Shown here in pieces: positions 16,111 through 41,146 of a stretch of 64,000 nucleotides of DNA (its first letter is position 1; every line of letters starts with the position of its first letter). Both the position numbers and the translations under genes were made by a program. The notes below the pieces were generated by a model, which was not told where the DNA came from, did no database searches, and worked only from the letters and a program-made list of their open reading frames with translations. The DNA is from Dudresnaya verticillata (taxonomy: Eukaryota), in assembly GCA_977862235.1 (NCBI GenBank), contig OZ374560.1, positions 1,302,001-1,366,000 of the forward strand, in the 5' to 3' direction.

Positions 16111-18180
16111 TCAGATAGCGTAATATTTGACTTCTTTGGAGATTGTGGAGGGGTCCTCAGTATCATCCGAGGGACCCCAACCATACCACCTAACTCGAAA
16201 CAAGAGAGCCCCTTCATCATTCCGATGGACGAAAAACCTGTCGAAGATATAATCATCTCCGTGAAAGGGAGCGGCGCTCTTCTCGGAAAATGGCGGAGGG
16301 GGAGGAGGGAGTTGTTGGTATGGACGTTTGGGACCGGGCGAACCGCCGAGGGTCGCGTTCCTGCTGGACTCCGTGGTAGTGATGTAGGGGTGCGGGTCTC
16401 GGAGCCGGGTTGCCGTTGAAGGCGGGCGCTGCGACGTAGCGGTGCGTTCCGAGCACTGAGTGCGCAAGGCTCTGCGTCGAGGAGCGCGGTGCGGTCGCCG
16501 TGTTTGGCGTTGTTGTGATCGGGTGACGCGTCGCATCGTCGTCCGAAAACGTTTGGGGGAGCGACCGCGTGATTCTCGAGGGCGCAGTAGGCGCGTTGTA
16601 GGAAGCCGGTGGCGGCGCGGTGCGACCCATTGCCGTCTCAGCGCCGGCCATACCAGGTGCGGTCACCTCACTGTACGGGCAGCATACAGCGGCATCTCCG
16701 AGATAGGAGTTATTTTGGGCGAGGCTATTTTCAGCTGCGAGATTTGGAGTCGTGGCGCCATGGTGCCGTGTGCTTCGCGCGCGGGTTGGAACGCCTTACA
16801 GGCGGCAGCAAAGCGCTTACAGGTGCAGGCTCCGGTTGGACAGCAGGACCTGCAGTGTGCGACACGCGCGTGCGTGTCTGCATTGCTGCGGGTCAAATAC
16901 CCTTACAGGCGGGGGCGCCGGGTTTTAGAGGCTCACGAGAGTCCTTGCCGATATATCGAACCCCACCAGCGTGCGCGAGTTCAAACAAATTGGGCGGTAA
17001 CTCTCTGCGTGCTGTGGCGCCCGTGGCGACGCGGGTGTCTGACTCCTGGGTGAAGTGTAGGTCGACAGACTTGGCAAGCGCCAGCAATCGCGGTTTGGGT
17101 ACCACGGGGGATGAGGTCGGTGCCGGGCGAGGGAACGCTGGCAACAGCGATGCTGAACGCATGCGATGCGAGTGGGCGCGCGTGTTCACTCCTGGAGGGG
17201 GCGGGGAAAACCGAACGCGACGCCTTCGTGGCGCCTACGCAAAGGTGCGTGTGGGGCAACCAAGATGCACGAGTCAGTTCGCGAGTTGGTATATCTCTAT
17301 CTGGTAGTATGAAAGGGCGTGCATCTGGCTGCGAGTCGCCTTGCGGGGTTGGCACCGAATCAGATCCCAGGATGGAGGGGCCTGCCCTCTAGCTGATGGG
17401 GACGGTCGGCAGATCGCGCAACTGCGCCTGTGAGGGCGAGGCTGAGCGCGGGTTTCGCGCGGTGTCTCCATCCGGGGCTTCAGTCCCTCGCACCGTATGT
17501 GGAGAATGAGCTGCTCGTACACGTCGTGTAAGCTGCCATTCTCAAATATGGGAGCGGTTACAGGCGCCACGGGTAGGCTGGCTGGCGCCAGTCTCCGGTA
17601 GGTCAGCAAGTCCGTGCGCAACCGCATTGAGTACTCCACCCATGGAGTGAGTTTTCGGCTCTGGCGGCAGGGTGCTATCTTTAATTGCAGTATCGTAATC
17701 GGGTGGTGGGGAAGAGCCAATTGCAGCCTGGCGTGTGGGAGGGCGCGCGCCGACGAGGCGATCTCAAGTGACTCGCTCGCAGTCATTTCCGTTTTGACTG
17801 AAGACCGTTTCAGGTTCGAGGAGATGAAGCGATATGGCCCGGTGGCAACTGGCGATAGTTTGTGGCGAGTCGTGGTTCCCGGGTTGACGGAGCCCTTGCG
17901 GAAAAATTCAAAGCTGCCTGGTGGGTGGTTGGAATTCTCCGACTGAATTCTGCTGTCGAAATTCGCTTTGTGACGTGTTTGGCTCTTTCGCATCTCGGAA
18001 GTGGCAGTGCTCATAAGCCTGCGCAACCATCCTAGCCATGTAGGGTAGTAGTGCGTGATACCCACTGCTTCTATTTGAGGTTCGGCCTGTGGCGGTAAAG
18101 CTCGCGGCGGACTTGACAACACCAGATCAAAAGAAGCGCACTTGGTTGACGAGTGGACCTGCGCGTTATTCGCGTAAGTC
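16111..18180 (-). pseudogene. Degenerate Ty3/Gypsy (chromovirus) integrase C-terminus plus chromodomain
   Basis: TYANNAQVHSST..SFDLVLS and SQTRHKANFD...KLSPVATGPY (GPY module) precede the chromodomain YIFDRF...LFRVRWYGWGPSDDT at 16111-16256. A purine-rich PPT candidate lies near 16051-16068. Confidence 0.8.
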
Positions 18181-18189
18181 CACTGGTCA

Positions 18190-20185
18190 GTGACATCGGC
18201 CGAGAAAAATTATTCGGCCACTGGGCGCGAGTGTTTGTCTGTGGTGTGGGCCATTACATCATTACGGCCATATGTTGAAGGTACCAAGTTCACAGTCCGT
18301 ACGGACCATGATGCCCTCCGTTGGTTGATGTCGCTCACTGATTCGTCTGGCCGTCTTACAAGATGGAGATTACGTCTGGCCGAGTTCGACTTTGTGATTG
18401 AGTATAAACCGGGCCGTAAGAACCAAGTACCCGATGCCTTGTCCCGCTTGGTGGACCCGCAAGAGCGCGGAGATGCACGGCCAATAGATGATACTGTACC
18501 TGTATTGGATGGTACCCCCTCTATTCTCACGACCACGCGGGCCCGGAGAAATCGAGAAACTAATATGGCCGACAGGAGGGAAAGAGACGATGGAGTCGAC
18601 GCATGGGAAGAGGAACATTTGATGGCCGATTATACGGACTATGGACGAGCGGAAGTCTTCAGTCGTGCACAAATGGAAGGGAAGACAGCAGAGACTCTTC
18701 CAACACCAATAACACAGACTGAAATAATAGAAGGCCAGAAAAACGATGACTTCTGCCAGACCATTCTCGCCACGCGAGCTGGCCTGGGACGACCCAAGAA
18801 ACCTCTCTTCTTCGAAGGGGACGATGGGGTCCTCTGCAGACGTTGTCCAACAGATGGCCAGAAACAAATAGTGCTTCCAGCCTCGCTACATGGCCGCATT
18901 CTTCGGTTGTGTCACCATACCGTTCCGGCAGGTCACCCTGGCCAGAATCGAATGTATCAGACTCTTCGACGGACATACTATTGGCCGCACATGGCCGTTG
19001 ATTGCTTAGCAACAGTGCGAAACTGTGGCCATTGCGCGAAGAACTGGATCCGTCGTCTCCGACATACATCGAATTTACAGCTGTTCCCGGCCAGTCAACC
19101 ATTAGAGAGTGTGGCCATGGATCTTCTCGGGCCGCTCCCCAGGACTAAGAAGGGGTTCGAGCACATATTAGTCATTACATGCCGCTTCTCGAAGCTGACT
19201 CAGGTGGTGCCGTTGACAAAGATAACCGCCTATAATGTGGGCACGGCGTTCTGCGTTCACTGGATTTTCAAGTATGGCGCACCAAAGACAGTTCTTACCG
19301 ATAACGGAGGGCAGTTTGCGGCCAAGTTCTTCCAGGCAGTCTGCCGGCAATTACAGGTGGCCAACATCTTCACGACAACATATCATCCACAAACAAATGG
19401 CCAGGTGGAAAGGTACAATCGAACACTGGCCGCGATGCTTAGGAGCTACGTGAATGAACATCAGACTGACTGGGATGAGTACGCTGCGGCATTGACGTAT
19501 GCTTATAATTGCCATATACATCGCTCCACTGGAACCACGCCGTTTGACTTGGTTCTCAGTCGGCCGCCGAGCCCATTCTCACTTGAGGCTACGTTAAACC
19601 GGCCAAAGCCAACAGGGACTGTGAAAGAAGCGTTCTTGCGCCGATTATCAGAGGCCGTGGATAAAGCTTCGGCCAGTTTAACTCGCACACAAGCGCGCTA
19701 CAAGAAGGACTTCGACCGCTCGGTTAGAACGGGGAATAAGATGCTGGCCGCTGGGGGGTTTGTCTTTCTGGACAACCCAGAAAAGCAGCCAAAGAAACTA
19801 GAGCACCACGCCCAGGGGCCATAAAAAATTATAAGCAATGATGGCCGTACGTTCGTCATCGACAGAGCTGGCCAACTAGAGCGTGTTAACTCGGACCGAG
19901 TAGTAGCCGCGCCCAGGCCACAGGGGCAACCGATGGCTACGGAGACATTGGCCAGTGCCGCATTGGGAACCCTCCCTGAAGGAGTTGCTGCGTCGGCCGA
20001 GGAATATGTCATTGACACTCACGGATATGCGCGAGGATTCGACTGGCCAGCGGTGGTTTCAGGTCAAGTGGTATGGGTATAATGGCCGAACATGGGAACC
20101 CGAGGCTCTTCTGCCAGCCACGTTGGTGTCCCGCTTCTTCGCGCGCATGAAGCGCCGAGCTACGCCGGGCCAAAACAGTTCGTAA
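18190..20185 (+). pseudogene. E1 pol 3' half: RNase H, integrase, chromodomain
   Basis: AEKNYS..RECL, TDHDAL.W, RLTRWRLRL, HHCC zinc finger (H..H..YYWP..C..C), MDLLGP, TDNGGQF and HPQTNGQVERYN. The GPY motif is hit by a TAA at 19822. The chromodomain FQVKWYGYNGRTWEPE follows a frameshift. Confidence 0.93.
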
Positions 20186-20985
20186 GGTCAACTTCGACAT
20201 GGCCAGGGAAGTCAAGCGAGAGGAGTCAGAGTCTGGCCAAAAACTTGTGAAGACGGAGATGCGGGGTGGTTGTGGACGGAGGAGGGAGATGCTGGGTGAC
20301 AAAATACCCCGGCTGGTACCTCGCCACCAAAAACACGACGGCGGTGTTTAGGGTTAACCCAGAATAATGTAAGCTGGCCAATCATGTGTTAGAAAGTCAC
20401 GACCAGCAAATCTCCTGGTGTACGGCGAAATTCAGTGGGTGTAAATGGACGGTCGAAACTACCTCATCTTTTGCTGTCTTTTCCAGGTAACTCTAATTCC
20501 TACGCATCGTGCTTTCGAGCGGGGGTTTGCGCAGAGTGAGAGAACAGGGGAAGCGACGATAACCCCTACCGACAACAAGAAGGAAATTGGCCAGAGAAGA
20601 AGATATGGCCAAATGAAGTGCTTGAAGTCGATGAAAAAGACAATAGCTGGCCATTGCTCTTCCTTCGGCGCCTTGAAGAAGGTAGCCCCACGCCAAGGCC
20701 ACTTCACCACTCGCACTGGCCATTTTTGTGCTTTGACTTAACCACTAACGCCCTTAACCCCGTTTTTCCAGCTGTGCTAATGAGCATTGGCCAGAAGCAA
20801 GACCCATTTGACTAGTATCTGGCCACGATAACACACAACATTTTTGAAGGTAACCAGTGCACTTTAACTCAAGACTGGCCGGACAGACTTAACCCCCAAA
20901 GACAAGGGGGATGTCCCGCCTTAGAAGCACTAACTTGGCCACCAACTTTTGATAACGCAAACGCAAGACACAGGAAATCACAAGA

Positions 20986-23900
20986 CTAACAACAACTCAT
21001 TGGCCAGCATAAGAGCACAAGACGAGCTGGCCAACTACTAATCCAACACTTTAACAACCAACGACCATAAGGACTTGGTGAGCGAGGAGAACCCGGAGCG
21101 CAGGGCTCTCTGCTCCTTGACTGCGAAGGCGCACGAGGCGCTGTCGCGGGAGCTCGTGGGGCTGTTGCAGGAACGGTTGGCGGCGTCACAAAAGGCGAAG
21201 TGGCCGGCAGAGATAAGCTACCAGGGACATGGCCAGGCTGAGCAACATTGGCCACAGGAGTCGGCGGGGCCGACACAGTCGGACGAGTTGCCTCTGGTTG
21301 ATAATCGGCCGGACGAGACGGCGCGCGCGGATGGCCAGAGATATCTCCAGCATGAGATGGCGTGGGGGTTGTGGCCGGTGCCACTGAAACCCCGGGATAT
21401 TGCGGCATAGTCGGCGCAGGCGTAGGCAAGGAAGAAAGAGGAAACTGAGGCATCTGGCCAAAGACAGGGGGCGCATAAGCTGCGCGCAAACTGGCCAGCT
21501 GATGAAATCCACGATTGCGCTCCATGTCAAGTAAGGCCTGTTGATTATGCGTCTCGTCGCACCAGCGATCGCGCTGCTTCTTCCACTCAAGACCCTGCTC
21601 GTTAGATCTGGCCAGCGACTCCTTTGTGGCCTGCAACTCGGCCTCGACCTGATCTTTCTGTCTTCTAACATTGGCCAGCCGCTCTTCGCCCCGTCTGATC
21701 ACCTCTTCCACTTCATCAACATGACGCCGAAGGCGGTTGAGTTCGTCGGTCTGGCCACGCTTTGTGTCGCTGAGGCGACCAAGGCTCTGATTCAGCTGCC
21801 GCAAAATATTGGCCAAAGACATTTGGTTAACATGGCCGCGCACAGAAAATTCGGCCACCACATGCGGATGAGGATGCAAGAGGTTGGCCCGCACAATGGA
21901 AGCGTCGTTGGCCACTTCAACTCCAAAGCTACTTCCATGCCGAAAAGTCACTTGCCTGTTCCAGTCGAAACCGCAATACTTCTCATCATGGCCAGCCCTG
22001 CGTTGAAACAAATGGTCCCGGTGCCGCACTGTGTCGGCCAACTTCTCATACAACGACACAACATCTGGCCAATACACATGATTGAACTGATGATGATGCT
22101 CCTGGCTGACGGGGAGGTAGGTAAGATCTTTCACCACTTCAACTCGTCGAGCAATGGCCTGAGAAGACATCCACCACATTCTCTTCGACGCTTGCGCTTC
22201 GTAGCGGAAGAAGATGCTGGCCATTATGTGCAACTCTATGACAGCGGTTTCTTGGAAGCACTCAACCCAAGTGGGGTCGAGCGCATGACGACGATACTGG
22301 CCAACAAAATAATAGGCCAGAGGGCTAAGTAGACAAGCCTCTCCCCTCGATGGCCACTCCTTCCAAACAAAAGCGGGAACGCTAGGGAAGTATTCGACCG
22401 AGGGCCAAAACCCTTCCTGGCCACGAGTGTTGCCGTGGTAGACATAGCAACCACCCGTGCGATGCGCCAACCAATCTCCCGGCGCTATGATGCGACGAAG
22501 GTCTGTACTGGCCATTTTCGCGTTTCGCACGGTCGTCTAATCCCAGCGCTCAAGCATCCACGAGTGAGGGAAGGCGTAATACCATGTGGAAGTATGAGGG
22601 TACACATTAGAATTACCCTTGAACATCAGCCAAGCCCCGTGAACGAACATCACGTCCTGCGCGCACAACAAGAAGGCACGGTCGCACTCAATCTCCAGAG
22701 GGATCCAATAGAGATGGCCATTATCATGCGACTCGCGATATTGATGCCACGCCTCGTTGAGAGGGCGATGGCTTTCCCGCACGCGAATCATGTCCAGCTT
22801 ATCACTATTGGCCACCAACTCCGTATAAGTAATATCCACTCGAGGACGCGTTGGCCAGATGGAAGTCTCGGGCAATCGCTCATCCAAAACTAACTCGGGG
22901 CCATCATGATCTTCTAGGCCCGGTGGGAGGTCGGAACGGAAAGGTACAGCAGCACGAGTGTGCGAAGCTGGTTCACAGTCCGGATGCGTTGGAGCAGAGG
23001 GGCCAGCACTTGAACTTGGGATATCCTGGCCAGCTTTGGAAATATCCAAAGTTTCTTCGCGTGGTATAACTTCCTTCACGCGAGGATCTTCACTCTGGCC
23101 AGATGACTTAGGCGGCGCGCCTGCAGATGGCGTGGAAGGAGACTGGCCAGTTTTGAGCTCATCGGCGTCGGGGAGCAAAGCCACAAATCGACGACGATCG
23201 CCGTCTTACATGAGATTGGCCGGTGGAATAGGGGTAGAAGCACCGACGTCAACAACTTCGTTGCGAGATACCTGGCCAACTTCCTTCGGGGGCAGCCGCT
23301 GCTTCTTCGAAGGAGGCCCCTGAACAGCGGGCTTGCCGATGTTCAACTTGGCCAACTCACGCGCACGACTAGCGGCCGTCGGCATGAAAGGTGAAGGCGC
23401 CGAGCGCAGTCGTGGCGTGGATTTCCTCGAAGCACTCGGAGTGGCCGAACGTGATGACTTGCGTGGCACGGGAATATTGGCCAAAGCTTCTGCGGCCTTC
23501 TGCCCCAACTTATCTCCTTTCTTCTGCTCTGGCCCAACCTTCTCAACTCTTCCAGGTAACTCCTGCTTGCTGGCCAGTGGTTCTTCTCGAGCGGGCACAA
23601 ATACCATGGCCGAATCGGAAACCTCGGGCCGAGCCGCATCTACTTCTTCGGCTGCCGCCGCGGTAGCTTGCGTAAACAATGGACGGGAGATGACAATGAC
23701 GGCCTTCTCAATAGCGCTGACCAACGGTGGCGGAGTGGGATTAATGGCCGTTTGCACTGAAGTGCTTGCGGCCGGCATCAACTTCTTCGCCTCGAGGCGC
23801 TTCACTTCGGCCTGCACCAACCCTTTCTCAGGGGCTTCTGCTACCTTCTGGCCAGTTGCTCTCGCCTCTTTCGCTGACGGGCCAACAACAGAAGATGCAG

Positions 23901-24449
23901 TCGACTTACCCTTTCCAAGTTGGCCTGCTGCCGCCGCCGCCTCCTCTGACGAAGATGATGCGACGATGGTTACGCTGCGCACTACCTTGGCCTTCTGCAC
24001 ATCAGCAAGTTTCTTCTTTAGGTCGGCCAGTTGTTGCTCTTCAGCTTCGCGCCTCTTCTGACTGGCCGCTATCTCCTGCATCAGTTTGTCAGTGCCAACG
24101 TCGGGCGTAGCGGGCACCATGGGCGGAGTAGCGGAGGCAGCAACACTCTTCTTCTGGCCAGTCTTGATGGGCTTTTCCGCTGCGGTAGTGGCTGCAGCAA
24201 CTGGCGGATCGGAGGGCTTGCCACTTGGGGTTTGGGTGCTGGGGCGGAAGATGCCCTGGGCGCCTTCATCGCACGCGGCCTTGAACTCTGGCCAGTCTTC
24301 TTCGCGGTAGCCTTCACTCTGGCCACAGCGACTTCTTCGTCGCTCGACGGCGGTGTAGAAGATGAGCTGGAAGAAACGGTCGGCCGTACAGTCTTCTTCT
24401 TGGCCGATGCGGTGCGACGCGGGCGCGCTTTCGCAGGACCACCCGCCAT
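20986..24449 (-). pseudogene. E1 antisense extra ORF (~1150 codons), unknown function
   Basis: ORFs 23206-24753, 22537-23184 and 20986-22530 share one frame and are separated by single stops (TAA 23206-23208, TAG 22537-22539). The likely start is MAGGPAKARP (ATG 24449) in another frame. It has an NLS-like PPSKKQRL, a globular domain, a coiled coil and a Pro-rich tail. Confidence 0.7.
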
Positions 24450-24685
24450 CGAGAGTGAACTGGCCAGACGCGCACGTGGAGACCGAAGCAAGGGGCGGCG
24501 CGCGCACGTTGGAAGGAAGTGAGGACGTGCGCGCGATGTGTTGGCAAGTGTTGGTAAGAGGAAGTGTGGTGTGGCAAGATGGTGATGGCCGCATGCAGGG
24601 AGAGGGGTAGCGGCGCGGATCACGCGTGCTGATATGGCCAGATGAAACCCTCGCGGCCAGGAGTCCGCGCTTGCGAAGGGGGCTC

Positions 24686-25449
24686 TGTGGTGCAACGGCA
24701 AGGGGGCCGCCGAAAGGAAGCAACTCGACGGGCCAACTGTACGATCGGCCCAACCAAACGAAGACACTTGGCCAATGAAGTTGAGTCGTCGGCGCGCGGA
24801 CGGCGGTGAGCGCTCGCCAGTATGAAACGTGGCCACCGACTGTACACGTGGCTCACACGTGGCCACCTACGACACCGAAGCGCACCACGTTGCCCGTTGT
24901 ACACGTATGATCCGGATCGTGGCTAGATGCAAATGGAAATTGGATTTGGCCGCAAGGTGAATCAAAGGGAAGACAGTGGAAAAATCAAGGGAAAATCTAA
25001 CTCATTTGGCCAACCACTAACGAACAAGTACTTGGTTTAGTCTGGTAAGGGTACAGCATTGGCCCGACGCCGGAACAAAAGTAGATATTTATGGCCGACC
25101 TGGGTAACCTCGGCCACTAACTGTAGAATAGCTCTAGATTAGCTCAGATGGCCGATTTTGGGCCTACTTAGCTGGCCACACACTACGGCTAAGCCGAAAA
25201 AGGTACGAAGCCGTCCCGCCAGAGGTTGGGAGTAAAGTTAATAACTGAACCCCCAACTTGGCCATTTTCTGTCCTCATCACAGATTCTGGCCACGACTTC
25301 GTCTGCGCGCTCCCGCTCTACCACGCTTGCTACCGGCGTGCAGGTCCCTTCTACGTTCTGGCCAGTTTTGGTCAAATCCGACAGGTCTTTGTGGTCTTCT
25401 TGGGGTCTCGTTTGGCTGCCGTACGCGGTGGTGCTCTAGAGATACTACA
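24686..25449 (+). repeat. E1 3' LTR (~764 bp)
   Basis: Starts TGTGG after the PPT and ends TACTACA, matching the termini of the other LTRs in the window. It contains CACGTG boxes. The partner LTR is not seen. Confidence 0.75.
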
Positions 25450-26172
25450 CGGAGTACCGACCGGCATTGAGTAGGAAACCTCGAAGTTCTTGTGGTCATC
25501 AGGTACTTGCGGATACTTCCCGTTATACCACTCCGGCTTGATAGCCGTCACCTCTTGGCAATGGCAAGGGATGAGACACCCTGTCTTGTGGCGTTGCTTC
25601 CGCTCGAAGCGGGAATGCCCTAACGGCATAGCCGTCTGGGGGTTATCCAGAGCGTATTTTAAGTTGGATGACTCATCCCACCGCACCACGCGGGCCATTG
25701 TATACGGGAAGTTATCCCTCCCCTTCCGAATGAGTGGACGCTCATGCATAACGAGTCGAAGGTCCCACTCGCCACCCTGGTGAATCTCATACAAAAGGGC
25801 GGCCTGCGAAGTTAACTTCTGCGTCAGCGCATTGCTGCACGCAATCTCATGCCGGAAGCGCACATAGGCAAGATCCCATTGCAGGGGGTCTGCGTCGCCA
25901 TCAAGGCGCGGGAGGAACCGGTTGGTACCGGTCAAGATGCCAACGCGCGTGCGCATGAGACGATTCCAAACACGGCTTTGAGCCATCCCCCCGATGCGGC
26001 GAACCTCCTCGCGACTAGCTCCCGCCCGCATCTTCAGATGTGTGAGGTCGGTACGCAGGAGCCAGTCGCGGCTGTGGGAGATCGCTATCGGCACGCCAGC
26101 CGCATCCACCTCATGTCCCAAGAAATTGACACTAGAGCCTGCGGCTCCATACGCCAAGTGTGGCGGCGCCAT
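25450..26172 (-). pseudogene. E3 antisense ORF, homolog of the E2 antisense ORF, truncated by E1 insertion
   Basis: Collinear with 29203-30390 (LGHEVD.AGVPI, SRDWL.RTDL.HLK, WDLAYVRFRHE, RPLIRKGRDN.PYT, RWDES.NLKYALDN, QRHKT.CLIPCHCQEV). Similarity stops at MPVGTP, exactly at the E1 LTR end. Confidence 0.85.
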
Positions 26173-26855
26173 CCCGATATAGTATGCGAGAATGCCAACG
26201 GCTTAGAAGTCGTTTCCGAATAGAGTCTTCTAAGGTTCGGAGACCTTTCTCTTAGTTCGCGTCGGCTCCAGAACTGACCCTGAGGGGTAGTGAGCGCGAC
26301 CTGATTACTCCTACGGCGCGGAAGCCGTTCTTCTGCCTGAACGTCGGCTCCAGAGCCAAGTCCAGCGACTGGCGAGCACGACCTGAGAAAACGGCTGTCA
26401 GCCGGGAAGAGCGGGGCGCGCACGGCGGAGGTCGTAGGGCTCAACGCAGGGCGCCGGTGGGCAACGGGAAAACCGCAGATGATGAAATCGCTCAAGCGGG
26501 ACGGATGCAGCGAGCAGAAGCCGGGCGGTTGGGTGAAGCGCTACGGCTGTTGGTGGGTGTGGGCACCGAAAGGGAAAAGATGGCTGCAAGCCAGCGTTGA
26601 AATATTCGTGCGCCCGTCTGGCGTTTCGCGCAATCGATACCGGTCGAGACGACGCCGACGGCTCAAGCCGTGCACACGGTGACCTGGAGCCTCATCGAGA
26701 CGGGGCGCTGGGAGGCGTTTGCAAAACGTTCTCGCTGGGCCAATGAACGGACCACCGGATCTCAATCTCAATCTCAAACGGCTATAGCCTTTGGAAACAG
26801 CATCGCTGTACAGCTCCTTACTGAGCGCGGTCGCTCAGTTTTAAGAAGGGGGCCG

Positions 26856-27816
26856 TGTGGTATAACGAGCGCTGGGGCGCTGTAAGGAGCCACGTGTACA
26901 CGCGACGCCTGTAAGGCGTGGGATACAGGAGTGAGATGGCTGCTCGCCATTGGACAATTAACTACGTGAGCACTAGGCGCGCTGAGTGGTGGATACGCGC
27001 CATGATGGCACGTCTATTTTGGGCGTGGCGCCTTACAATGTGTGGCAGTATGGACGCTGTCAGCAGAAGGGCTTACAGAAGCGCACTTCTTTTCGCGGGA
27101 CAGACTGTCCCTTAATCAGGACAGCTGTCCTTTCATCGCTGTACACGTGTATATACGTGTATACACGTGGACTTACAGCTATACACGTGGCGTACACATG
27201 GCAGGGTAATGACGCCAGTTGGACACCTCGTATTGGCAGATTTATGACGCGCCGCTGCGCTCCTACTCACGGACGAGGAGCACCTCTGCGCTCAGGGTAT
27301 CGACAGTGCAGCCGGGACCTCGGCTTGCGCACCGGCGCATCCGCCACCAAGTCCCCTAACTGGAATGTATTCCCACTTTTGACTTGTACTGACTGTACTA
27401 ACCTTTGTATCTATAATCATAGACTAACTTAGACCCCCTTTTGGGCTGATAGACTTTTCGGCTGTCAAGCCTACTTATAGGCGCCGGAATAGCCGGCGCC
27501 CTCAGAATAAACACTCAGCGGAGTTGTTCGGGAAGTTTCCACCTTTTGGTCGCTCGGACGCTCCGCGCCTGCAGGGGTCGCCCAGTACAGGCCCGGAAAT
27601 CGTACGACAAGTACTCTACGAAAAACCGGGTCGCAACCTCTATACGTTCCTTCAGTCGGTCGCGCCGAGTCTTTACCGTGCTTCCGCACCCCCCCTTTCG
27701 GGTCATCAGGGCCCGCCTTTTTCCAAGCCTCTACCCAACCTCCCTCGAGCTACCACCAATTAGCGTGTGATATCGGACAGCTGTCTCTTCTTGTTCTTTG
27801 CTGTTTCTGGCCGGTG
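26856..27816 (+). repeat. E3 3' LTR (~974 bp including 41134-41146), split by E2
   Basis: TG start after the PPT, 5' end similar to the E2 LTR (TGTGG.ATAA.GAGCGC...GCGCTGTAAG), and a CA end at 41146. Confidence 0.85.
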
Positions 27817-28440
27817 TGTAGTAGAATGGCCCTTGGCCAGGTAGTCGGCGATAAAACGGCGCGACAGCTGTCCTGGGGACACACACTCACGGTGGGCGGT
27901 AGCTCAAAGGAAAAGGGAAAAAGGGGGTGGTAGAGACTTGTAGTGGGTGTAATACCCAGAAACAAAGAAAAGGGAAGGCGAACCCTACAGCGTAGAGCAA
28001 TCGTCGTACACGATAGGGCTTGTAGACGCCCAAGGCAAGGGAAACACGGTGGCACCGTAGGAAGACCAGAAAATGGGTACAGCCCAAAGTACACACCGCT
28101 GGCGGTTTAGTGCTGGGCCCCTGCTACTCAGGGGCCCATTAAATACGGCGGGAAGCCGGAAATGCTACCCACTCTAAGCTAGAGTTATAATACTGACAGT
28201 TACCTACTACTGTACACTAAGTGGTGGATTACAATCCAATGATAGGAATGAGTGGTAGTACCACTACGAGGTACAGGCGCGCTGCTGTCTGGCGCGCAAT
28301 GCCAAAAATATGGGTGACCAGGATTAATCAACCAATGATAATCAGCCATCTCAGCCATCGTGCCCTCGGGCGCCTCACGCCTTACAGGCGTCATCTGTAC
28401 ACGTGTGTGCTTACAGCGCTCGGGCGCTCATTATTCCACA
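27817..28440 (-). repeat. E2 3' LTR
   Basis: Direct repeat of 40505-41128 with 5 substitutions seen by eye. Confidence 0.97.
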
Positions 28441-28458
28441 CGGCCCCCTTCTTAAAAC
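28441..28458 (-). promoter_or_regulatory. E2 polypurine tract
   Basis: The minus strand reads GTTTTAAGAAGGGGGCCG immediately before the LTR TG. Confidence 0.85.
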
Positions 28459-28967
28459 TGAGCGACCCCGCTCAGTACAGCAATGCTGTTTCCAACGGTT
28501 CCGACCGTTGAGATCTGAAATCTCGTCGAAAAGATTGGCCCAGCCAAGCGCGGTATTTCTGGCTTTCTAGAAGCATCCACGAACGGTCGTCGGCGCCTGC
28601 GCCAGATCAGCCCGGCGACAGCCGTCGTCGGTGGCTCGCCTTTGGCGCCACGACTGGTATCGACAACGCGACACGGCAGACGGGGCGTCTATTTCAAACT
28701 CGGCGCAGAGCCGACTGTGCCCCTTTCGCACTCTCGGTCACCCACCGACTCGACCGCAACCTCCACACTTCCGATACCCTGCCCTCTTCCGCCATCACTC
28801 TTCCGCCCTTCTTCACCCTAGACTCTTCGCGACGACTCGCGTCGTGTTCGGGCGCGTCTTTCTGCCGTGCTGCGCAGCGCGCGGGAGCGTTTCTCCTTTG
28901 TCTCGTGGCAAAAACGTTTGCGTCGAAGACTGGCCTCGTGTCGCCCATAAGCATCGCTCGAGCGATT

Positions 28968-29128
28968 CAGGCCGCGCTCGCCTTTCTTAGGATCGGCTTT
29001 GGAGCCGACGCATTTCAAGGAAGGCCTCCGCGCCTTAGAAGTATTTTCAGGTCGCGCTCGCCTTTCTGACGATCGGCTTTGGAGCCGACGGTCATACCGA
29101 AGACAAGGCCTCCGTGCCTTAGAAGAAT
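28968..29128. repeat. 80-bp tandem duplication with hairpins, upstream of the antisense ORF
   Basis: Two copies of CAGG(C/T)CGCGCTCGCCTTTCT...GATCGGCTTTGGAGCCGACG...AAGGCCTCCG(C/T)GCCTTAGAAG. A homologous pair is at 26226-26386. Confidence 0.85.
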
Positions 29129-29202
29129 AACTGGGGCGCTCCCATTTTGCAAAGCCTTCAACTCGAGACGTCTCGCGACGTGGGGTTCGCATCGTCACAG
29201 CG

Positions 29203-30390
29203 ATGACCAACTTGGGTCTCGTCTATGGAGAGGCTGGCTCTAGCGCCAGCGTTCTTGGCCATGAAGTCGACTCGGCGGGTGTGCCGATTGTCATTAAGCG
29301 CAGTCGCGACTGGTTGGTACGCACCGACTTGGCGCACCTCAAAACCCGAGCTGGGGCTGGTCGTGAGGACATCCAACGACGCGGGAGTCGTGGTGCTCAG
29401 AGTCGTATGTGGAACAGCGTCAGCCGTGCTCGAGTGGACATGTTGACCGGGACCAACCGACTCGTTCCCGGTCTGCTGGGTGAGGCGTCTTGCTACTTTT
29501 GGGACCTCGCATACGTGCGATTCAGGCATGAGGTGTTCTTCACGAACTGTATCGCCGGGAAGCTGAACTACCAGCTGGGGGCGATGCGGGAAATCCACTC
29601 GAGTGGAAAGTGGGACCTGCGCATGGTTAGCCATGCCCGCCCCCTTATTCGCAAGGGGCGGGATAACTATCCATATACGCTAGCTCGCATCGTCCGGTGG
29701 GACGAGTCCACCAACCTCAAGTATGCGCTTGACAACTCGCAGACGGCCAAGCCGTTGGCTTATTCTCGCTTTGAGCGACGTCAACGCCACAAGACTGCAT
29801 GCCTCATCCCTTGTCATTGCCAAGAGGTGGTTGCCATCAAATCAGAGTATTACAGGGCTAAGTACCCTCAAGTGCCCGACGACCACGCGTCGTATGAGGT
29901 CTCATATTCAATGCCAGTGGGTACCCCCACCATCGTGGCTTACTTTGGCCTGAACATGATGGCGCGAGCCATGGATGAGAGCGTACTCTGGACCCTTTTT
30001 CGTCACGAGTGGATCGTCTTGGTCGTGCAGACTCTCGTCTATGAGGCCCGTCATGGGATGCTGTATTTCATCAACCAGCCCCTTCGCGCTGCCATCAAGG
30101 AGATGGGTATCGACAATCTGTCGGCGGACGCCGATGACGCACAGGACTTGAAGGCCCTTTTGGTCTTCATAGACCGCATTCGGTGGAGCCGAATCTCCAA
30201 ACGGAATCGTCATCTCCCGGAGAACACCGGTCATCTCACTCCTGTATATGACCGAGGACATTGGGTGGACTTTGACCTAGAAGATTGGCATCCGGTGTTG
30301 CCGGACTTCTTGATTCAGCCTGAGCCGACAGAGGAGAGACCCCTGGTCTTGGATGAGGGAACCCGCATCACCGGTATGACTCACGGGTAG
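29203..30390 (+). CDS. E2 antisense extra ORF, conserved domain of unknown function (395 aa)
   Basis: Open ORF antisense to pol, conserved at protein level with the E3 homolog despite many synonymous-looking differences. Confidence 0.8.
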   Translation: MTNLGLVYGEAGSSASVLGHEVDSAGVPIVIKRSRDWLVRTDLAHLKTRAGAGREDIQRRGSRGAQSRMWNSVSRARVDMLTGTNRLVPGLLGEASCYFWDLAYVRFRHEVFFTNCIAGKLNYQLGAMREIHSSGKWDLRMVSHARPLIRKGRDNYPYTLARIVRWDESTNLKYALDNSQTAKPLAYSRFERRQRHKTACLIPCHCQEVVAIKSEYYRAKYPQVPDDHASYEVSYSMPVGTPTIVAYFGLNMMARAMDESVLWTLFRHEWIVLVVQTLVYEARHGMLYFINQPLRAAIKEMGIDNLSADADDAQDLKALLVFIDRIRWSRISKRNRHLPENTGHLTPVYDRGHWVDFDLEDWHPVLPDFLIQPEPTEERPLVLDEGTRITGMTHG

Positions 30391-31482
30391 GTGAGCGCCA
30401 GTTGGCAGGACCCCGGTTCGGAGACTCCAGGTGACGTCCCGTCATTCGACGACACTGTCGATGGTCAGTCTCAAGGTTCGTACGCGACGGCATCAACTGG
30501 CCATGGTAAGGCCAACCACATCTTCCGTGACGTTTTCAACAAACGGGGTTTGGCTATCCACCTCGCGGTGCATTGGGAACTACGGAATCTCACCGTTAAC
30601 AGCCTCGCCGACTGGGTCGAGGAGGTGATGGTGGACTATGAGTCCAATTGGATGAGGACTCCGGGTCCTGTGGAGCGTTCGGAGAAACTTCGTACCCATT
30701 TGTCAAGGCTCCCACCCTTGAAGGGATACCCCGATGATGTTGACATCATCAAACCGCGTTTGGGCGTTGGCCATTCTGCTACGCCGCGAGTGAAGAGGGA
30801 ATCGGCCAAGGTCGATAGTTTGGATCCGCGCGCAATGACAGGTGGTGACACCTCGGTGGTTCCTCGCGAAGAGTCAGCTGTGGCGCCTTCGGCCAGTCAT
30901 GGAGCGGCCATTTCCCACTCGGCTCCCAAGCCGATGAATACAGCGGGCGCCTCATCATCGACGATGGCGCCGGCTGCTCCTACGATGCACATGTCTGGCT
31001 TCGTCGCTACTGGCGAGTTTTTCAACACGATCTCTCCCAAAGATGATTCTCGGGGCCAGCCCGATGCTAGTCGTTCTAAGGGCGACTCCTTGGTGGTTAA
31101 ACCAAGTGGCACCGGCCAAGAGAGCGAGAAGCCTGCGGATGTCGAGACTGGGCCTTCGCCCACTGTTGGCGAGTCCAACGTAACACCTCAAGACGACGTT
31201 GTCGTGAAGACTGAGCTCGTCGTGAAGGAAGAAGACGAAGTAGCCCCTCTCGTACAGGGCATCCAGACCGATGGCGTTGATGCCATGGAAGTGGACCAGC
31301 CAACGGCCAGTCGCCGTGCGTTAAACGAGTTAGAGGGGAGTCGGCGCGGTCGTGGTCTGCGTCGCGGAGGGGAAAGCCGTCACGTCGTGCGCGAGGTGCG
31401 ACGTGTCGTCGTATCTCACTCGGCACCCAAGCCGAATCCTCCGTTGGGTGAGGATGAGGTTATTGACCTGTTATCGGATTAG
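30391..31482 (+). CDS. In-frame continuation of the E2 antisense ORF after a single TAG; low complexity, ends in a SIM-like motif
   Basis: Starts in frame immediately after the TAG at 30388-30390, stays open for 363 codons and ends GEDEVIDLLSD. Confidence 0.6.
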   Translation: MSASWQDPGSETPGDVPSFDDTVDGQSQGSYATASTGHGKANHIFRDVFNKRGLAIHLAVHWELRNLTVNSLADWVEEVMVDYESNWMRTPGPVERSEKLRTHLSRLPPLKGYPDDVDIIKPRLGVGHSATPRVKRESAKVDSLDPRAMTGGDTSVVPREESAVAPSASHGAAISHSAPKPMNTAGASSSTMAPAAPTMHMSGFVATGEFFNTISPKDDSRGQPDASRSKGDSLVVKPSGTGQESEKPADVETGPSPTVGESNVTPQDDVVVKTELVVKEEDEVAPLVQGIQTDGVDAMEVDQPTASRRALNELEGSRRGRGLRRGGESRHVVREVRRVVVSHSAPKPNPPLGEDEVIDLLSD

Positions 31483-32684
31483 CCGAAATTGTCCTTCTTC
31501 GAGTAATGGCTCGTGAGCCACGTAATTCGCCACACTTGGGCAAGAGCGGCTTATCCGCTGAAGTAAAGTGACTTGTTGTTGTTTGTGTCACTTCGGTACG
31601 CCGATTTCCATAAGTAGAGCCAACCACTGAGGGGGCCCTCATTAACACGCCTCTGCGACTAGGCTCCGAAGGAGCCCCCGTCGACGTTCGTCGAGTGACT
31701 TCCTTTAACTCAAGGCCGTCGCGCCCTTTTCTTTTCTAGGTCCTTCACTCGGAGAGGGAGTCGCGTGCACATGCGCGGTAGACTCCTCAAGGGAGTTGGT
31801 GGCGAGAGCTGAGGGTGCCGGGGCAGTGCCCCGTGGATTGTGGTGCCAAACGATTATGATTCGTTAGTCAATCCGCCTCCCTTGGCGCTTCGCCAAATCA
31901 GTTATTGCCAGCAATGATAGAGGCGACTCTACAGTAGACAAAAACATACTGTAGAGCTACGTTCTTGTTGGCGCCAACCGATGTAGGGACTCTTCAGCCA
32001 TAGCTGATTTGCGGGTCAATTCGCCTCTATGGCGTCTGGAGCAACACACCGTCCTTTCCCTCAAGAAGGTCGTTAACATCCCCTAGTCGTCGTCGACGAG
32101 GGGGCTTATGCCACATCTGCGGCCGTCAGGTCACCGTTATGGTGAAGCGACTCCTCCATGGTAGTAAGCCTCACCCGCGACGGCCTCGTAATGGCGACAA
32201 AGTTATGGTAACTCTGCTAGGGCAGACGAGTGTAGTTTCGTGGATTCCCGTCACGATTATTGCCGTGGTGGAGGTGTCCAACATGAGGGCAGATCCTCAC
32301 TCCTGGATTTCAATCCATAAGTGGCTGGAGCCTATCCCCATAGCTTAATTACCATATTGGCATAAGGCTTCCTTCCTACCGGTGGTAGTATTTCTTTCTA
32401 TACATGTGAGCGTTGGCTCCAGTCTTATTATTACAGGGTTCTACCCATGTCCAGGTTTCCCTTGATCTCATCTATTCCAGGTCTTGAACCTTCTGTACAT
32501 CTATCCACATCTATCCATGTCTTCTATCCATATCTTGAATCTCCATTCATCTATCCATATCTTCTAACCAAACCAAGGTATCAACCTTTTCTTCACCAGC
32601 ATACGTGTTCCACGTTTCATATAATGACAGCTTCCACAAGCAACCCAACCCTCGCTGCAGGAGATTGACTCCTCCTTTTCCATG

Positions 32685-35600
32685 CTAAGCCGACAGTCTC
32701 TTTCTGTAGAGCTGTAGGGCTGTGTTTTCCCGAGACTCCACGTCTTCGTCTATCGACGAAGCCACTGCGTCGGCAGTTACACCTGGAAGGGGGATCTTCC
32801 TGGAACGGTGATACCGTTTGACCAAATTGTCAGGGAGGTGATCCCTTGGTTCCCAGGTGTCTTGCGACGCTGGGCATTGGAACCACCTGATACGATACTT
32901 TTGGGTATCGGCGTCATAGTCGACGATTTTGTCATACACGAACTCACGTGGGGGTGCTTTCTTATAGCGTGAAAACTTACGGCGAGGCGCCGTCACATCA
33001 TCCTCAATCGCCGGCATTGCCGTGGGAGCGGCAGGCGGATTTGACTTCTGTAAGAGTTGTGGGGTGTTACCGCCTTGAGACAGGGAAACAGATACCTCTG
33101 TATGGGGGTTGTTAGGAGAAACCGGGCCCACGGTGCTATCGATATTGTCAGTGTTTCCAATTAATGGAGAGGGGACAGTCGTCGCATTTGCGGGTCCCAC
33201 GGCCTCTCTTGAGCGTTCCTCATCTTGCGCTCTTCGCGCCTCTTCAGTGGAAGGTTCATCGGTGGGCTCTGGCCCAGAAGGTGGTTGCAGATGGTTTCCA
33301 GCTTCTGGTGCTTCACCAACTATCGCGGAGTCCTGTCCTAGAGCTCCGAGTTCTTCGTCTGGCGAGGGCGCCAATGTCACGCGGTCCAACGAGATTGACT
33401 CTCGCTCCCCCTTGACTTCAAGCACGACGGTGTGCGTTCCTCTCTCGAGGACCTTATAAGGCCCCAGAGCCTTTGGGAAAAGCTTTCCTTCTCGCGCTAC
33501 GCCTCTAGCGTCTTTCATCTTAGTTTCTCTTTCAAGAAAGACCCATTGTCCAGGGCGTATCTTCTGATTGCTCAGACGCATGCGGTTGTTGAAGTTAGCT
33601 TCGTAGCGACGTTGCGCTAATTTTAGCCGAGGCAACGCTGTATCCATCAGCTTCTCAAGTCTAGCGGTCAGCCGCTTCTTGACATTAGTCGCAGATACGT
33701 TAGCTACGTCGACCGTTTCAGCTTTCTCCATGAGGATGGAAGTAGGTGGATTGGATAGAACCAAATCAACGGGCGCGAATCCCGTAGCACGATGAACGGT
33801 CGTATTATACGCATACGTTAGTGCCGACGTGAACTCGTCCCAATCTTTTTGATCATCTGCGGTGAAGTGTCTCAACCCTACTAGAAGGGTGCGGTTGAAC
33901 CTTTCGGTCTGAGCATTGGTCTGCGGATGATATGTAGAGGTGAACATATTCCGAATACGGAGGATGTCGCAGACGGCAATAAAGAACTTCGAAGCAAACT
34001 GCGATCCATTGTCGGACAAGACGTAACGGGGTGGCCCGTAGATATACACCCAGTGTTCGCAGAACGCCCTCGCTACCGTATAAGCCGTTACCGTCTTCAA
34101 CGGGACTACCCGTGTAAGTTTCGAGAAACGATCGGTGATGACGAGAAGATACTCGTTCCCCTTGCTTGATCGCGGAAGCGGGCCCAAGATATCGATTCCT
34201 AGGAATTCGAGCGGCATAGTAGCCGGAAATAACTTCATGTGCGAAGTATGTTTACTCAACTGGACTCGTTCCATCGCGCACTTGACACAGTTACGCACTG
34301 TCGAGTAAACGGCAAGGGCCATGTCTGGCCAATACACTTGCCTTCTCAAGTTGTGGTACATCCGTGTGCCACCAGGATGGCCAGCCATATCCGGGTAGTG
34401 TGCAAGATGTAGGACTCTCTCCTGAAGAACTCTAGGTATGACTACCTGTAAAGCTCGGTCAATGTAAGACCTTCGGACTAGGAGTCCGCGTTCGTCTTCC
34501 AGATAACATCCCGGTTTTCCCGCTTCGATGGCTAATCGGATACCCTTACAGAATTCGTCTGTTCGTTGGGCGCGAAGAAGTTCCTCTATTGTGAGGAGTG
34601 AAAGACTCTTCTCGTCCATTTCCTTTTCAGCCACGTTAGCTATCAATTGCTCGTCCTCGAGACCCGACTCGAACGAATTGTCTTCGGGTTCCATCTCCCA
34701 TTCTTCCAGAGGTCGCGACCTGGTGTTGGCTCGCGATGTTTCCTTCGCCGAAGGGTCAGGGGGATCTTCCCCATCGCTATCAGCGATTATGAAGCAGGGG
34801 ATCTCGAGATCCGGTTCCCACTTAGTAAACCCATAGGTAGGTAAACGTGAGACAGCGTCAGCAATCTGATTTTTCTTTCCCTTACGGTATTGGACCGTGA
34901 AGTCATGCTCTAAGAGACGCAAGCGCCATCGTGCTAGACGTCCGGACGCGTCCGTCATGCTCATCATCCATTTGAGAGCCTGATGGTCGGTGTAGAGGTC
35001 GAAATGAGACCTTTCCAAATATGGTCTGAGCATTTGGGTAGCCCAGACTACAGCGAGGCATTCCTTCTCGCCGACGGAGTAATTCCGTTCTGCTGGTGTT
35101 AGGCCCCGACTCCAAAAGCCAATAGGGTGTCGAGTCCCGTCGGGTTCCATTTGCATTAGGGCGCACCCTATTTGGTAGTCACACGCGTCGGTATCGACCG
35201 AGAGGGGTCTGTCTTCCTTAGGAAGTCGGAGTATTGGCGGCGCGATGAGGGCTTTCTTCAGTAAAGCGAAAGCTTCGCGTTGCCGTTCATCGAATGGAGG
35301 TAATTCGAAATCAACGTCCTTCTGTAGGAGCCTATTGAGCGGAGACGCTACGCGTGCAAAGTTCGGTACGAAACGTCTATAGACGTTGCATAGCCCAATG
35401 AACGACCGTAGTTGCGTTTGCGTCGTAGGTTCCTTGAAGCCTTCGATGGCTTGTGTATTCTTGGTAGCTACCTCCAGGAGACCAGGTCGGATCACGTGTC
35501 TGAGGTAATCCACGCTTTTTGTGAAGAAATTACACTTCTTCAACTTGAGCGACACACCCGCTTCCTTCAACACAGAGAGGATCTCTTGAACGTGACCTAA

Positions 35601-37364
35601 GTGTTCGGTGACACTCTTAGAGAATGACTATGATGTCGTCCAAGTAGACGAGACAAGACTTCCATCGGAATCCCGATAATAAAATGTCAACTGTTCGTTG
35701 AAACGTTGCTGGTGCGTTGCACAGACCGAATGGCATTCGGCAGAACTGAAAGCAACCTGCATGACAGGTAAAAGCTGTCTTTGGCTTATCCTCCGCCGCG
35801 ACTGGTATCTGCCAGTACCCTGAATTGCAATCAAGGGTTGTAAAATATTGGGCGTCGCCCAACGAGTCTAAGCACTCGTCCATTCGCGGGAGAGGGTAAG
35901 AATCCTTGATGGTTATCGCGTCAAGCTTTCTGTAATCAACGCAGAAACGGAGTGATCCGTCCGGCTTCTTCACTAGTACCACTGGACTTGCGAACTCAGA
36001 GCGCGCTGGCTCTATGACCCCTTCCTTCAACATCTTGTCGACTTCATCTTGCTCCGCTTGTCGCGCCTTCGGTCCAGACCGATATGGTTGTGCAAATACG
36101 GGTTTTGCCCCGTCAGTGAGATCGATTCGATGCTCCGTGACCTTTATGGTCCCGAGCTTCCCGTTCCACATATCTGCGAAGGGTCGCAACATCTTGCGCA
36201 CGAGACGTCTTTCAGACGTAGAGAGGTGTTCCAGGGCTAAGTCATCGACTGTTAGCTTCTCAGCGGCGGTTGTAACGCCCGGTTTGGGATTGGTCGCGCC
36301 AAGAGCAGCAGCCAGCCCTGCCCCCCTACATCGAAGGATGTCTCCGTTTGAGGATTCGTGTCCTTTTGTTGTGAGACTGTATCCTCGGAGACGTCGTCGA
36401 TGGAAACCGAATATACAGGCGTGGCCGTGGGATCTGGAACTGCGCGACCAATCACTTGGTGTTTGTTCAACCGCTGTGTGCGGGAAGAAAAGTTGGCAAC
36501 CTTGACCCGGAAGAGAACATTCTCTTGGAGTTTGACGATGCCATTCGTGATGATCACTTGTTGACGGTCGTATAGACGTTGGAACGAATCTAGGAAGTGC
36601 GTTCCTTTGGCCGTGCACGTGACGGCGACCCAGGTTTCTGAGCCTGGTAGTAAGTTAGTTGTTTGGGCAACTCTCACGAGTCGCGAGTTAGGTAGGGGAG
36701 GGACCTCCATGGGCTCGCCAGAGCTCGTGGCTCTCGGGATACCGCACCGACGCCGTAGAATCGGTTGTACCGAGCCGTCCCGTAGCGCGATGGTTTGTTT
36801 GCGTACACGCAACGCCTCGACATGGGTATCGATAAAGGTACAGCCTAAGATCATATCAACGGCTAATGCCTTGACTACGACGAACGGTTTTCGTACCGTG
36901 TAGGAGCCAATTCTGACGGCCAGGGAGATCATTCCCATAGTTGTTAAGCGGTGACTTGACGCGGACGTCAAATTCACGATCGATCGGGTCGAAGATATCT
37001 TCTTCCGTTCTTCCAAAGAGAGCACGTCGGCTCGGATGAGGTTTGGGCCCGCCACAGTGTCCAAGACTGAGAGCACTTGAGTAAGTTTCTCAACAGAAGT
37101 CCCCACGGACGCGACAACTTTATAGTTGTATCTCGAAAGAGAGCAAACTGGGTCCTTAACATACTCATGATACTTATACCCGGGAGGTAGGCCCACAGGG
37201 CGTTCTAAAATCTTCTTTGGAAGAGAAGGCGGGGTTTCCCGCGACACCGATCGGTTGGTAGAGGAGAAGCTTAAGAAGTCACATTCCTCTGAACGATCGG
37301 GGGGCTCCGATACGACTGGGGTTGCCCAGTGAACCGAAACCGGTTCCCCCCTAGCTAGTTTTTC
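32685..37364 (-). pseudogene. E2 pol (protease, RT, RNase H, integrase, chromodomain) with two frameshifts
   Basis: LDT(V)AGPN protease, LRFCVDYR, MPFGLCNAPATFQ, YLDD, DTDAC, TDHQAL, HHCC, IDILGP, SDNGSQF, GPY and chromodomain YRIRW...DTWEP. Frameshifts occur near 36322 and 35624. Confidence 0.95.
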
Positions 37365-40490: not shown

Positions 40491-40503
40491 GGTCAGGAAA
40501 CCA
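40491..40503 (-). promoter_or_regulatory. E2 primer-binding site, tRNA-Glu-like
   Basis: TGGTTTCCTGACC lies 1 nt inside the 5' LTR. Its complement GGTCAGGAAACCA resembles, from memory, the 3' end of eukaryotic tRNA-Glu (GGUCAGGGAACCA). Confidence 0.65.
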
Positions 40504-40504
40504 C

Positions 40505-41128: not shown

Positions 41129-41146
41129 CGGTGCCATACTGCTACA

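Follow-up and report, generated by a model that had tools for sequence, protein, structure and literature searches.

A selected antisense gene behind pol in chromodomain-bearing Ty3/Gypsy elements of Dudresnaya verticillata

Within a 64,000-nt stretch of DNA from Dudresnaya verticillata (here the window, in which all coordinates are positions), a protein-coding gene under selection, which lies antisense behind pol in a chromodomain-bearing Ty3/Gypsy family, is present in two copies, the reading frames E2 and E3. Sequence comparison places both in a large protein family without a name, with at least 119 clusters, and a third antisense frame, E1, is probably a remote member of it. Extra ORFs in antisense are already known as a class, and the domain encoded by E2 and E3 appears to be undescribed. 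The features are collected in Table 1.

Table 1. Features of the window connected with the three antisense frames and their elements (A, B and C).
Feature	Position	Strand	Remarks
Element A pol fragment, RH-INT	18178..20179	+	One stop and a frame break; 43% identical to B
Element A chromodomain	20024-20179	+	Chromo E 2.9e-4, under curated cut-off; frame-broken
Palindromic TGGCCA dispersed over whole element A, including pol and E1	18184..25370	.	62 copies vs 2.6 expected
E1, antisense frame of element A	20986..24449	-	About 1150 codons; one frame break, two in-frame stops
E1 block matching the family profile	22165..22464	-	Remote, probable
E3, truncated E2 homologue	25372..26172	-	Homology stops near 25441-25450; most of the core lies beyond
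Two-copy ~80-bp repeat upstream of E3 ATG	26228..26392	-	
Element C 3' end	26843..41606	+	PPT 26843-55; LTR from 26856, interrupted (B among interruptions), to 41606
Element B, full-length Ty3/Gypsy LTR retrotransposon	27817..41128	-	Nested in LTR of element C
B target-site duplication CGGTG, 5 bp	27812-16 and 41129-33		
B polypurine tract and 3' LTR	27817..28453	-	PPT 28441-28453; 3' LTR 27817-28440
Two-copy ~80-bp tandem repeat upstream of E2 ATG	28966..29128	+	Common to B and C; candidate promoter/binding site
E2, antisense ORF	29203..31482	+	759 codons; folded ~residues 20-390, then mostly low-complexity tail
Conserved family core in E2	29734..30372	+	E2 residues about 178-390
B gag-PR-RT-RH-INT-chromodomain	32685..40308	-	Five pieces, four frame changes
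B primer-binding site, tRNA-type	40491-40503		After 5' LTR
B 5' LTR, TG...CA, 624 bp	40505..41128	-	

The homology of E2 and E3 is evident from an identity of 67.5% over 240 codons, in agreement with the two-thirds that the preliminary description had estimated by eye. Identity by codon position is 76, 81 and 40%, and the Nei-Gojobori dN/dS is 0.09 and thus not near 1 (bootstrap 0-0.17, with dS near saturation); the two copies are under strong purifying selection. The frame of E2 begins with an ATG and carries a single in-frame TAG at codon 396 (30388-90). It holds 2 stops, and none of 500 simulated sequences had fewer than 9; the five remaining frames of E2 and E3 contain 3-14 stops each per copy. 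The low dN/dS is the reason to regard E2 and E3 as an old, selected accessory gene, as had been proposed, and this view is strengthened by the 119 clusters of relatives and their deep tree.

Element B, which carries E2 between the end of its minus-strand pol and its 3' LTR, is full-length and young. Its LTR pair shows 5 differences, transitions, over 627 aligned columns, and the features that define Ty3/Gypsy elements are all present: LTRs, primer-binding site, polypurine tract, target-site duplication and the order gag-PR-RT-RH-INT. Pfam matches in pol are Retrotrans_gag, RVT_1, RT_RNaseH, rve and, at the integrase's C-terminal end, Chromo (29.6 bits), and the top PDB sequence match is the RT of Ty3 (E 1.9e-41). 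We take the primer-binding site to resemble tRNA-Glu; no tRNA gene for comparison with it was found in the window. Primer-binding sites for tRNA-Met are typical of chromovirus clades, Tcn1 and Tf1 use self-priming, and the RT motifs of B are, we presume, non-chromoviral. Chromodomains have also been gained outside chromoviruses (PMC5348765). To speak of three chromoviruses, as was done initially, is an overstatement. Elements A and B are chromodomain-bearing Ty3/Gypsy elements, the element of E3 (C, whose LTR is related to that of B) lacks pol within the window, and no LTR of the element of E1 (A) was found. In the same way, a location between pol and the 3' LTR holds fully for E2; E3 has the polypurine tract and LTR without pol, and E1 has pol without an LTR. 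Element A adjoins the E3 fragment near 25370-25450.

E2 and E3 are not orphans. An exhaustive HMMER search seeded with both, with relatives clustered at 50% identity, returned 119 unnamed clusters at E<=1e-3, 49 of them at 1e-10. Thirty of the 119 were looked up, and among those 30 there was neither a name nor a named host homologue. The retrotransposon location of the family is that seen in this window. The relatives have in common a core of ~200 aa in which Arg, Glu and aromatic residues are conserved; behind the core comes a low-complexity tail. Conservation is strong at a few positions: R195 is present in 78 of the 79 rows having a residue, E232 in 85 of 89 and W328 in 88 of 91. Median net charge is +3 at residues 184-200; for the three remaining blocks of the core the medians are -1, -2 and 0. 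A metal-binding H..C..H cluster had been suggested; at least four of its five His/Cys positions are kept in 4/78 rows and at least three in 19/78, with C200 in 9/92. The cluster is unconserved, and metal binding is therefore unsupported.

The AlphaFold model of E2 (pLDDT 85.7, pTM 0.87) predicts a compact, mainly helical fold that is unmatched among solved structures. With Foldseek, neither PDB nor BFVD yielded a match at E<=1e-3, in searches that bear mainly on E2 residues up to ~220, and a VIA search of 48,161 chains gave best Z values of 3.5 for E2 and 4.6 for E1, with none >=5. Fold searches without a match are no proof of a new fold. The best score for E2 in the ESM Atlas was 0.84. At the sequence level, the initial failure to recognize an env, gag or host domain is borne out: no Pfam domain was found in E2, and none is common to 103 family members. 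Word-index protein searches gave no match for E2 (217-692 aa) or E1 (406-1294 aa), and the same type of search with the family alignment returned one member only, already known. NCBIfam and PHROGs gave nothing except coiled-coil noise, PDB sequences contained no match, Rfam none over 24400-32700, and no relatives were confirmed in JGI metagenome contigs or viral contigs.

E1 is a genuine antisense frame, with 3 stops versus a minimum of 17 in 500 simulated sequences, and it is damaged rather than a single open frame. The ATG at 24449 is out of frame with the E1 body, which contains in-frame stops at 23206-8 and 22537-9. Its architecture runs from a low-complexity N-terminal part through a globular middle and a coiled coil to a Pro-rich tail. 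The proposal of one family in three elements stands for E2 and E3 and is probable for E1, where it depends on one block of ~75-100 aa that matches the family profile. A profile built without E2 and E3 scores E1 at 38.8, a value reached by 0/3000 shuffles, with the span picked post hoc; among 618 six-frame segments E1 ranks right behind E2 and E3, and the next scores 23.8. With the whole core, unselected, 1/400 shuffles score as high, and 0-2/500 do so under motif-aware controls. Masking ruled out Trp and Pro residues imposed by TGGCCA as the source of the match. A second register (GHLYWIP, 13 columns, score 24.97) was considered as a sign of tandem duplication in E1 and rejected, as the match failed to extend.

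The alternative is that E1 is a separate accessory gene, possibly derived from Crypton/Ndc10, that came to occupy the same position independently, so that the family consists of E2 and E3 only. It concerns E1 alone and fits any function proposed for the protein. Pairwise comparisons of E1 with E2 and E3 are not significant (74/500 and 406/500 shuffles score as high), and a two-sequence-profile test is negative. The N-terminal subdomain fails against the family profile (882/1000 shuffles as high), and the count of conserved columns, 9/23, is at shuffle level; together with an HHalign probability of 3-4%, these two results count against including E1. The C-terminal half is negative as well (z 0.7). 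The differing architecture, with its coiled coil, favours separate origins, as does NDC10_II as first ESM Atlas match (0.93), but that match has 158/256 features in common, and Pfam does not report NDC10_II at E<=1. NDC10_II (PF16787) is not listed in the E1 fold-search results, but the model used there was driven by the E2-family alignment; on that alignment E1 reaches a mean pLDDT of 63.6, with 66-86 at residues 181-320, values that have no control and are not independent proof. The motifs first quoted for the relationship are present. The first pair, FPHSW.../YPYTL..., sits in an insertion specific to E2/E3 relative to the family profile and is therefore not a family feature. Given the profile scores, a separate origin of E1 is possible and on balance doubtful, and remote membership is the probable relationship.

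Two types of repeated sequence accompany these genes. The non-coding ~80-bp repeat is kept in both B and C. It sits within the element, immediately upstream of the ATG, and is as good a promoter candidate as the 3' LTR; it also falls in the 3' part of the predicted genomic RNA. In element A, TGGCCA recurs at a spacing of ~100 bp, also inside pol; element B has no comparable element-wide motif.

The likeliest role of the protein would be that of a nuclear trans-acting activator or anti-silencing factor. The full reading, with a selected antisense gene family, E1 as its likely remote member and a nuclear protein that keeps its own element expressed, is offered tentatively, as quite possible. Either the 3' LTR or the ~80-bp repeat would hold an antisense promoter, from which an mRNA of its own would be made without need of the 5' LTR. 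The core would bind DNA or RNA of its own element by means of its Arg-rich ERRxR helix and its aromatic residues, and the tail would recruit or block host chromatin factors, so that copies steered to heterochromatin by the chromodomain stay transcribable. Element A may have its family-specific binding sites in the dispersed TGGCCA, B and C theirs in the tandem repeat. We favour this reading because of the low dN/dS with its codon-position pattern, the 119 relatives, the conserved R195, E232 and W328 and the confident model, and also because of the lack of a membrane segment, the positive charge at residues 184-200, the kept repeat, the TGGCCA excess, and the precedents of the nuclear antisense product of maize Grande and of VANC. 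Against it, the core, near neutral overall, is not the strongly basic kind of DNA binder, just 20/56 long relatives have NLS-like motifs (a count with no control), structure searches give no functional lead, E1, E2 and E3 are all damaged, and B is without an element-wide motif.

The protein might instead act on the RNA of the element, exporting it in the manner of Rev/CERV, chaperoning it or suppressing RNA silencing, with the repeat bound as RNA; this is unlikely. An Arg-rich helix with aromatic residues would suit it, the repeat is part of the predicted genomic RNA, and CERV is reportedly a precedent. Compared with shuffles, the repeat units of B have a somewhat better fold (antisense-gene strand, z -2.05 and -2.37; pol strand, -1.68 and -1.97), but those of C do no better than shuffles (z -0.25 and -0.33; other strand -1.56 and +0.29), with predicted structures that differ from B. 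It is more improbable again that the core is a new enzyme, either a nuclease or a modifier of nucleic acid or chromatin, its active site formed by conserved Glu and Arg. E191, R192, R195, E208, E232 and E269 are indeed highly conserved across very divergent sequences, and Gypsy elements are said to have captured an enzyme before, an m6A demethylase. However, the 103-row alignment has zero invariant columns, only E232 and W328 attain 90%, and there are no conserved metal ligands. We give equally little credence to a protein of structure or movement, built into particles or serving spread from cell to cell, and to a host gene that was captured and rides along without benefit to the element. Such roles have been proposed for extra ORFs at the same position (PMC7264820), but the antisense orientation and the lack of a membrane segment argue against them, as do the lack of a named host homologue in the 30 clusters looked up and the fact that selection between the two element copies is strong.

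What antisense accessory genes do in LTR retrotransposons, and where they come from, is a standing puzzle (PMC7264820). The family described here is a different, unnamed one of that class, with >100 divergent members and a confident model without a solved match. It provides a new domain for annotation and a candidate explanation of how elements with chromodomain integrases remain active, with the motif-saturated element A as a ready candidate target for the protein. No literature describing this domain or a TGGCCA-saturated element was found in a search with subscription papers and Repbase outside its coverage. A more speculative and rather improbable extension is that an ancient chromodomain-Gypsy lineage carries a new-fold protein re-tuned in each family to its own motif, TGGCCA in A and the ~80-bp repeat in B and C. 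If true, LTR retrotransposons would possess an anti-silencing system that is sequence-specific, independent of VANC and coupled to heterochromatin-directed integration.

Among known systems, the antisense ORFs of plant Tat/Retand elements (Grande gene23, RIRE2, Retand TRP28; eORF-3'R) are alike in lying antisense between pol and the 3' LTR, in their conservation and in often standing beside tandem repeats (PMC11963269; PMC7264820); in maize Grande, the latter also reports, they are transcribed from a promoter of their own and their product is nuclear. In contrast to Tat/Retand, neither TRP28 (PF04195) nor any other Pfam match is common to the family (103 members), and the host elements here have a chromodomain and a single RNase H match. 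Conservation between copies or families, which marks eORF-3'R, is found here between E2 and E3 and across the 119 clusters. An env-like ORF was considered and rejected: E2 and E1 are antisense and no membrane-spanning segment was found in them (maximum 19-residue hydropathy 1.35 and 1.49), with a strongly hydrophobic 19-mer (1.8) in 1/56 long relatives. Outside plants, Boty is a chromovirus. The brtn gene of Boty/BcGypsy1 in Botrytis cinerea is likewise an antisense extra ORF behind pol in a Gypsy element (PMC7264820; bioRxiv 10.1101/2021.04.13.439636). This likeness is one of position and orientation; none of the 30 family clusters looked up bears a name. The domain order of B and A, with a chromodomain after the integrase, is that of chromoviruses and of the oomycete element Chronos. 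Chronos, a case of a chromodomain arising outside chromoviruses (PMC5348765), differs in a second RNase H, which B does not have. Arabidopsis VANDALs, to which VANC belongs, are DNA transposons. VANC proteins are TE-encoded, sequence-specific anti-silencing factors whose targets often form tandem repeats (PMC5735166), and the combination here of an accessory protein with element-specific repeated candidate motifs makes them a working model only.

The antisense reading frames E2 and E3, assigned to the LTR retrotransposon element B and the related element C, represent a real, selected and apparently undescribed family of accessory proteins. The preliminary description placed E2 antisense between pol and the 3' LTR, as the anatomy of the window bears out, and its estimate of about two-thirds identity to E3 agrees with the measured 67.5% (240 codons compared). 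Identity at codon positions 1, 2 and 3 is 76, 81 and 40%, and dN/dS is 0.09 (bootstrap 0-0.17), a rough value because dS is near saturation, and not near 1, the value named beforehand as speaking against a common gene family. Other frames of the region carry 3-14 stops per copy in each. E2 has a single in-frame TAG at codon 396, where the folded region ends, followed by a further 363 open codons. Both ATGs are preceded by a repeat of ~80 bp in two copies, conserved above the surrounding non-coding sequence; searches for a consistent RNA fold and for an Rfam match within it found neither.

Positions of features in the window
Feature	Position	Strand	Remarks
E2	29203-31482	+	Antisense to element B pol, between pol and 3' LTR
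E3	ATG 26172; homology lost near 25450	-	Antisense to element C PPT and LTR
Element B	27817-41128	-	LTR pair, target duplication, Pfam domains
Element C (3' end alone surviving)	PPT 26843-55; LTR from 26856; end 41606		
Element A RH-INT-chromodomain fragment	18178-20179	+	43% identity to element B pol
Fourth Gypsy fragment	16111-18209	-	Integrase C-terminus, weak chromodomain match
1369-codon low-complexity ORF	49853-53962	+	C-terminal hAT dimerisation domain, E 5.2e-6
DDE_1 transposase remnant	11513-12148	+	
23-bp tandem array	62142-62322		Near start of F-box/LRR-like gene

The anatomy of the elements was drawn from the 64-kb window alone, in which the character of the genes suggests a red algal host. 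Element B, inserted within the LTR of element C, has 624-bp LTRs (TG...CA) flanked on both sides by a CGGTG duplication and differing at 5 of 627 aligned columns, all transitions; four of these five differences cluster within 9 bp (28354-28362). Its primer-binding site (40491-40503, - strand) may be complementary to a tRNA-Glu 3' end. Pfam domains follow the Gypsy order (gag, RT, RNase H, integrase, chromodomain), and Ty3 RT is the top PDB sequence match. Four frame changes split the coding region into five pieces, so element B is damaged or mis-assembled though young. Within the element C LTR, a stretch of ~880 bp (26930-27810) does not match the B LTR and contains many ACAGCTGTC / TACACGTG words; it is possibly another insertion. 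The fourth Gypsy fragment and element A stand back to back, meeting at about 18180-18210, and no E2-family match was found behind it. The low-complexity ORF with the hAT domain is possibly a domesticated transposase gene.

Word-index protein searches with E2 returned no relatives. An exhaustive HMMER search with an E2/E3 profile against 1.84 billion representatives identified 119 proteins at E<=1e-3 (49 at 1e-10), with nearly all matches in E2 residues 175-395. The core alignment took the 91 matches aligned over 120 or more profile positions and dropped the other 28. The most conserved residues are R195 (78/79 rows with a residue), E232 (85/89) and W328 (88/91), together with E191, R192, E208, P225, P242, Y247, W263, E269 and G352; the His/Cys cluster earlier suggested to bind metal is not conserved (4/78 rows). 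An N-terminal subdomain is also common to the family (E2 27 bits, E3 32 bits, with a profile lacking both), and all nine relatives printed have the core and then a tail, mostly low-complexity by eye. A tree from a quick search shows deep divergence (median terminal branch 0.57). Pfam gave one stray match across 103 members, and none of 30 clusters looked up had a name; sources were ENA, Logan, JGI/IMG and NCBI. In several clusters, nearly identical members occur on multiple contigs, a repeat-like pattern, and we infer that the relatives are located in retrotransposons. An AlphaFold2 model of E2 residues 1-395, from a 103-row alignment including 101 of the 119 relatives, has a mean pLDDT of 85.7 and pTM of 0.87, and the predicted fold is mainly helical. 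Foldseek found no match in PDB or BFVD at E<=1e-3, and the top VIA Z was 3.5 among 48,161 chains; this fits a new fold without proving it, residues past about 220 being barely covered by the fold searches.

The E1 frame is real: it contains 3 stops, and none of 500 simulated sequences had fewer than 17. Its damage consists of two in-frame stops and, close to its start, a frame break. E1 is part of element A, because a signature of the palindrome TGGCCA runs unbroken from the pol of that element through E1 to 25360 and ends at E3. Element A (18184-25370) holds 62 copies of TGGCCA (2.6 expected) and 181 of GGCCA (21 expected). TGGCCA recurs about every 100 bp across pol, non-coding parts and E1, where it occupies all three reading frames (14/12/5); the literature searched yielded no description of an element so saturated. 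Just past the end of E1 (20886-20915, + strand), a CCCCC...GGGGG hairpin and a PPT-like purine run are possibly a terminator or second PPT.

Kinship of E1 with the E2 family, proposed in the preliminary description, is rather probable, and its support lies in profile tests over the core. Pairwise alignments with E2/E3 score at shuffle level, the N-terminal subdomain does not match the family profile (882/1000 shuffles as high), nor does the C-terminal half (z 0.7), and the conserved-column count, 9/23, equals that of 29 shuffles. The family HMM (5.6 bits, equalled by 2/500 shuffles) and HHalign probability (3-4%) also count against homology. The first proposed motif pair fails as a link, sitting in an insertion exclusive to E2/E3. 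On the other side, HHalign with a profile lacking E2/E3 aligned 73 columns of E1 in the region first proposed, and with E2 included E1 outscored 150/150 shuffles as well as 21 segments of real proteins. Under a position-specific profile that leaves out E2/E3, E1 scores 38.8 (0/3000 shuffles as high) and, of 618 six-frame segments, is outranked by E2 and E3 alone; the span behind both results was chosen post hoc. Over the unselected whole core, 1/400 shuffles equalled its score, and 0-2/500 did with dipeptides or motif residues controlled. Furthermore, RMWW in E1 is closer to the family GRLWW than is GMLYF in E2, a likeness beyond any selection in the preliminary description. A second stretch of E1, GHLYWIP (22699-22719, - strand), resembles the family GRLYWIP in a different register. 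An ESM Atlas lead for E1, NDC10_II (0.93; 158/256 features), was not supported by Pfam.

An E2-type gene has its own strand and a candidate promoter; its protein has a conserved Arg/aromatic core and then a probably disordered tail, and no membrane segment was found. Set beside Grande gene23, with an antisense transcript from its own promoter and a nuclear product (excerpts of PMC7264820), VANC, an element-encoded anti-silencing factor with sequence specificity and repeat-forming targets (excerpts of PMC5735166), and TGGCCA in element A, these features tentatively suggest a nuclear trans-activator or anti-silencing factor. Against this, element B lacks an element-wide motif comparable to that of element A, and the family core is not strongly basic. 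Ranked behind it, RNA export or RNAi suppression seems unlikely, and a new enzyme, or a structural or passenger protein, each less likely again.

No description of the E2-family domain was found in the literature searched. In green plants the chromodomain marks chromoviruses (excerpts of PMC6317226); the oomycete Chronos gained one independently (excerpts of PMC5348765), so the domain is insufficient to call these elements 'chromovirus', for which a tree is needed. Retand TRP28 is absent from the E2 family (Pfam, 103 members). The arrangement itself is of a known kind: Retand, Grande, RIRE2 and fungal Boty carry additional antisense ORFs after pol (excerpts of PMC11963269; PMC7264820; bioRxiv 10.1101/2021.04.13.439636), and Grande gene23, as excerpted in PMC7264820, is the nearest precedent.
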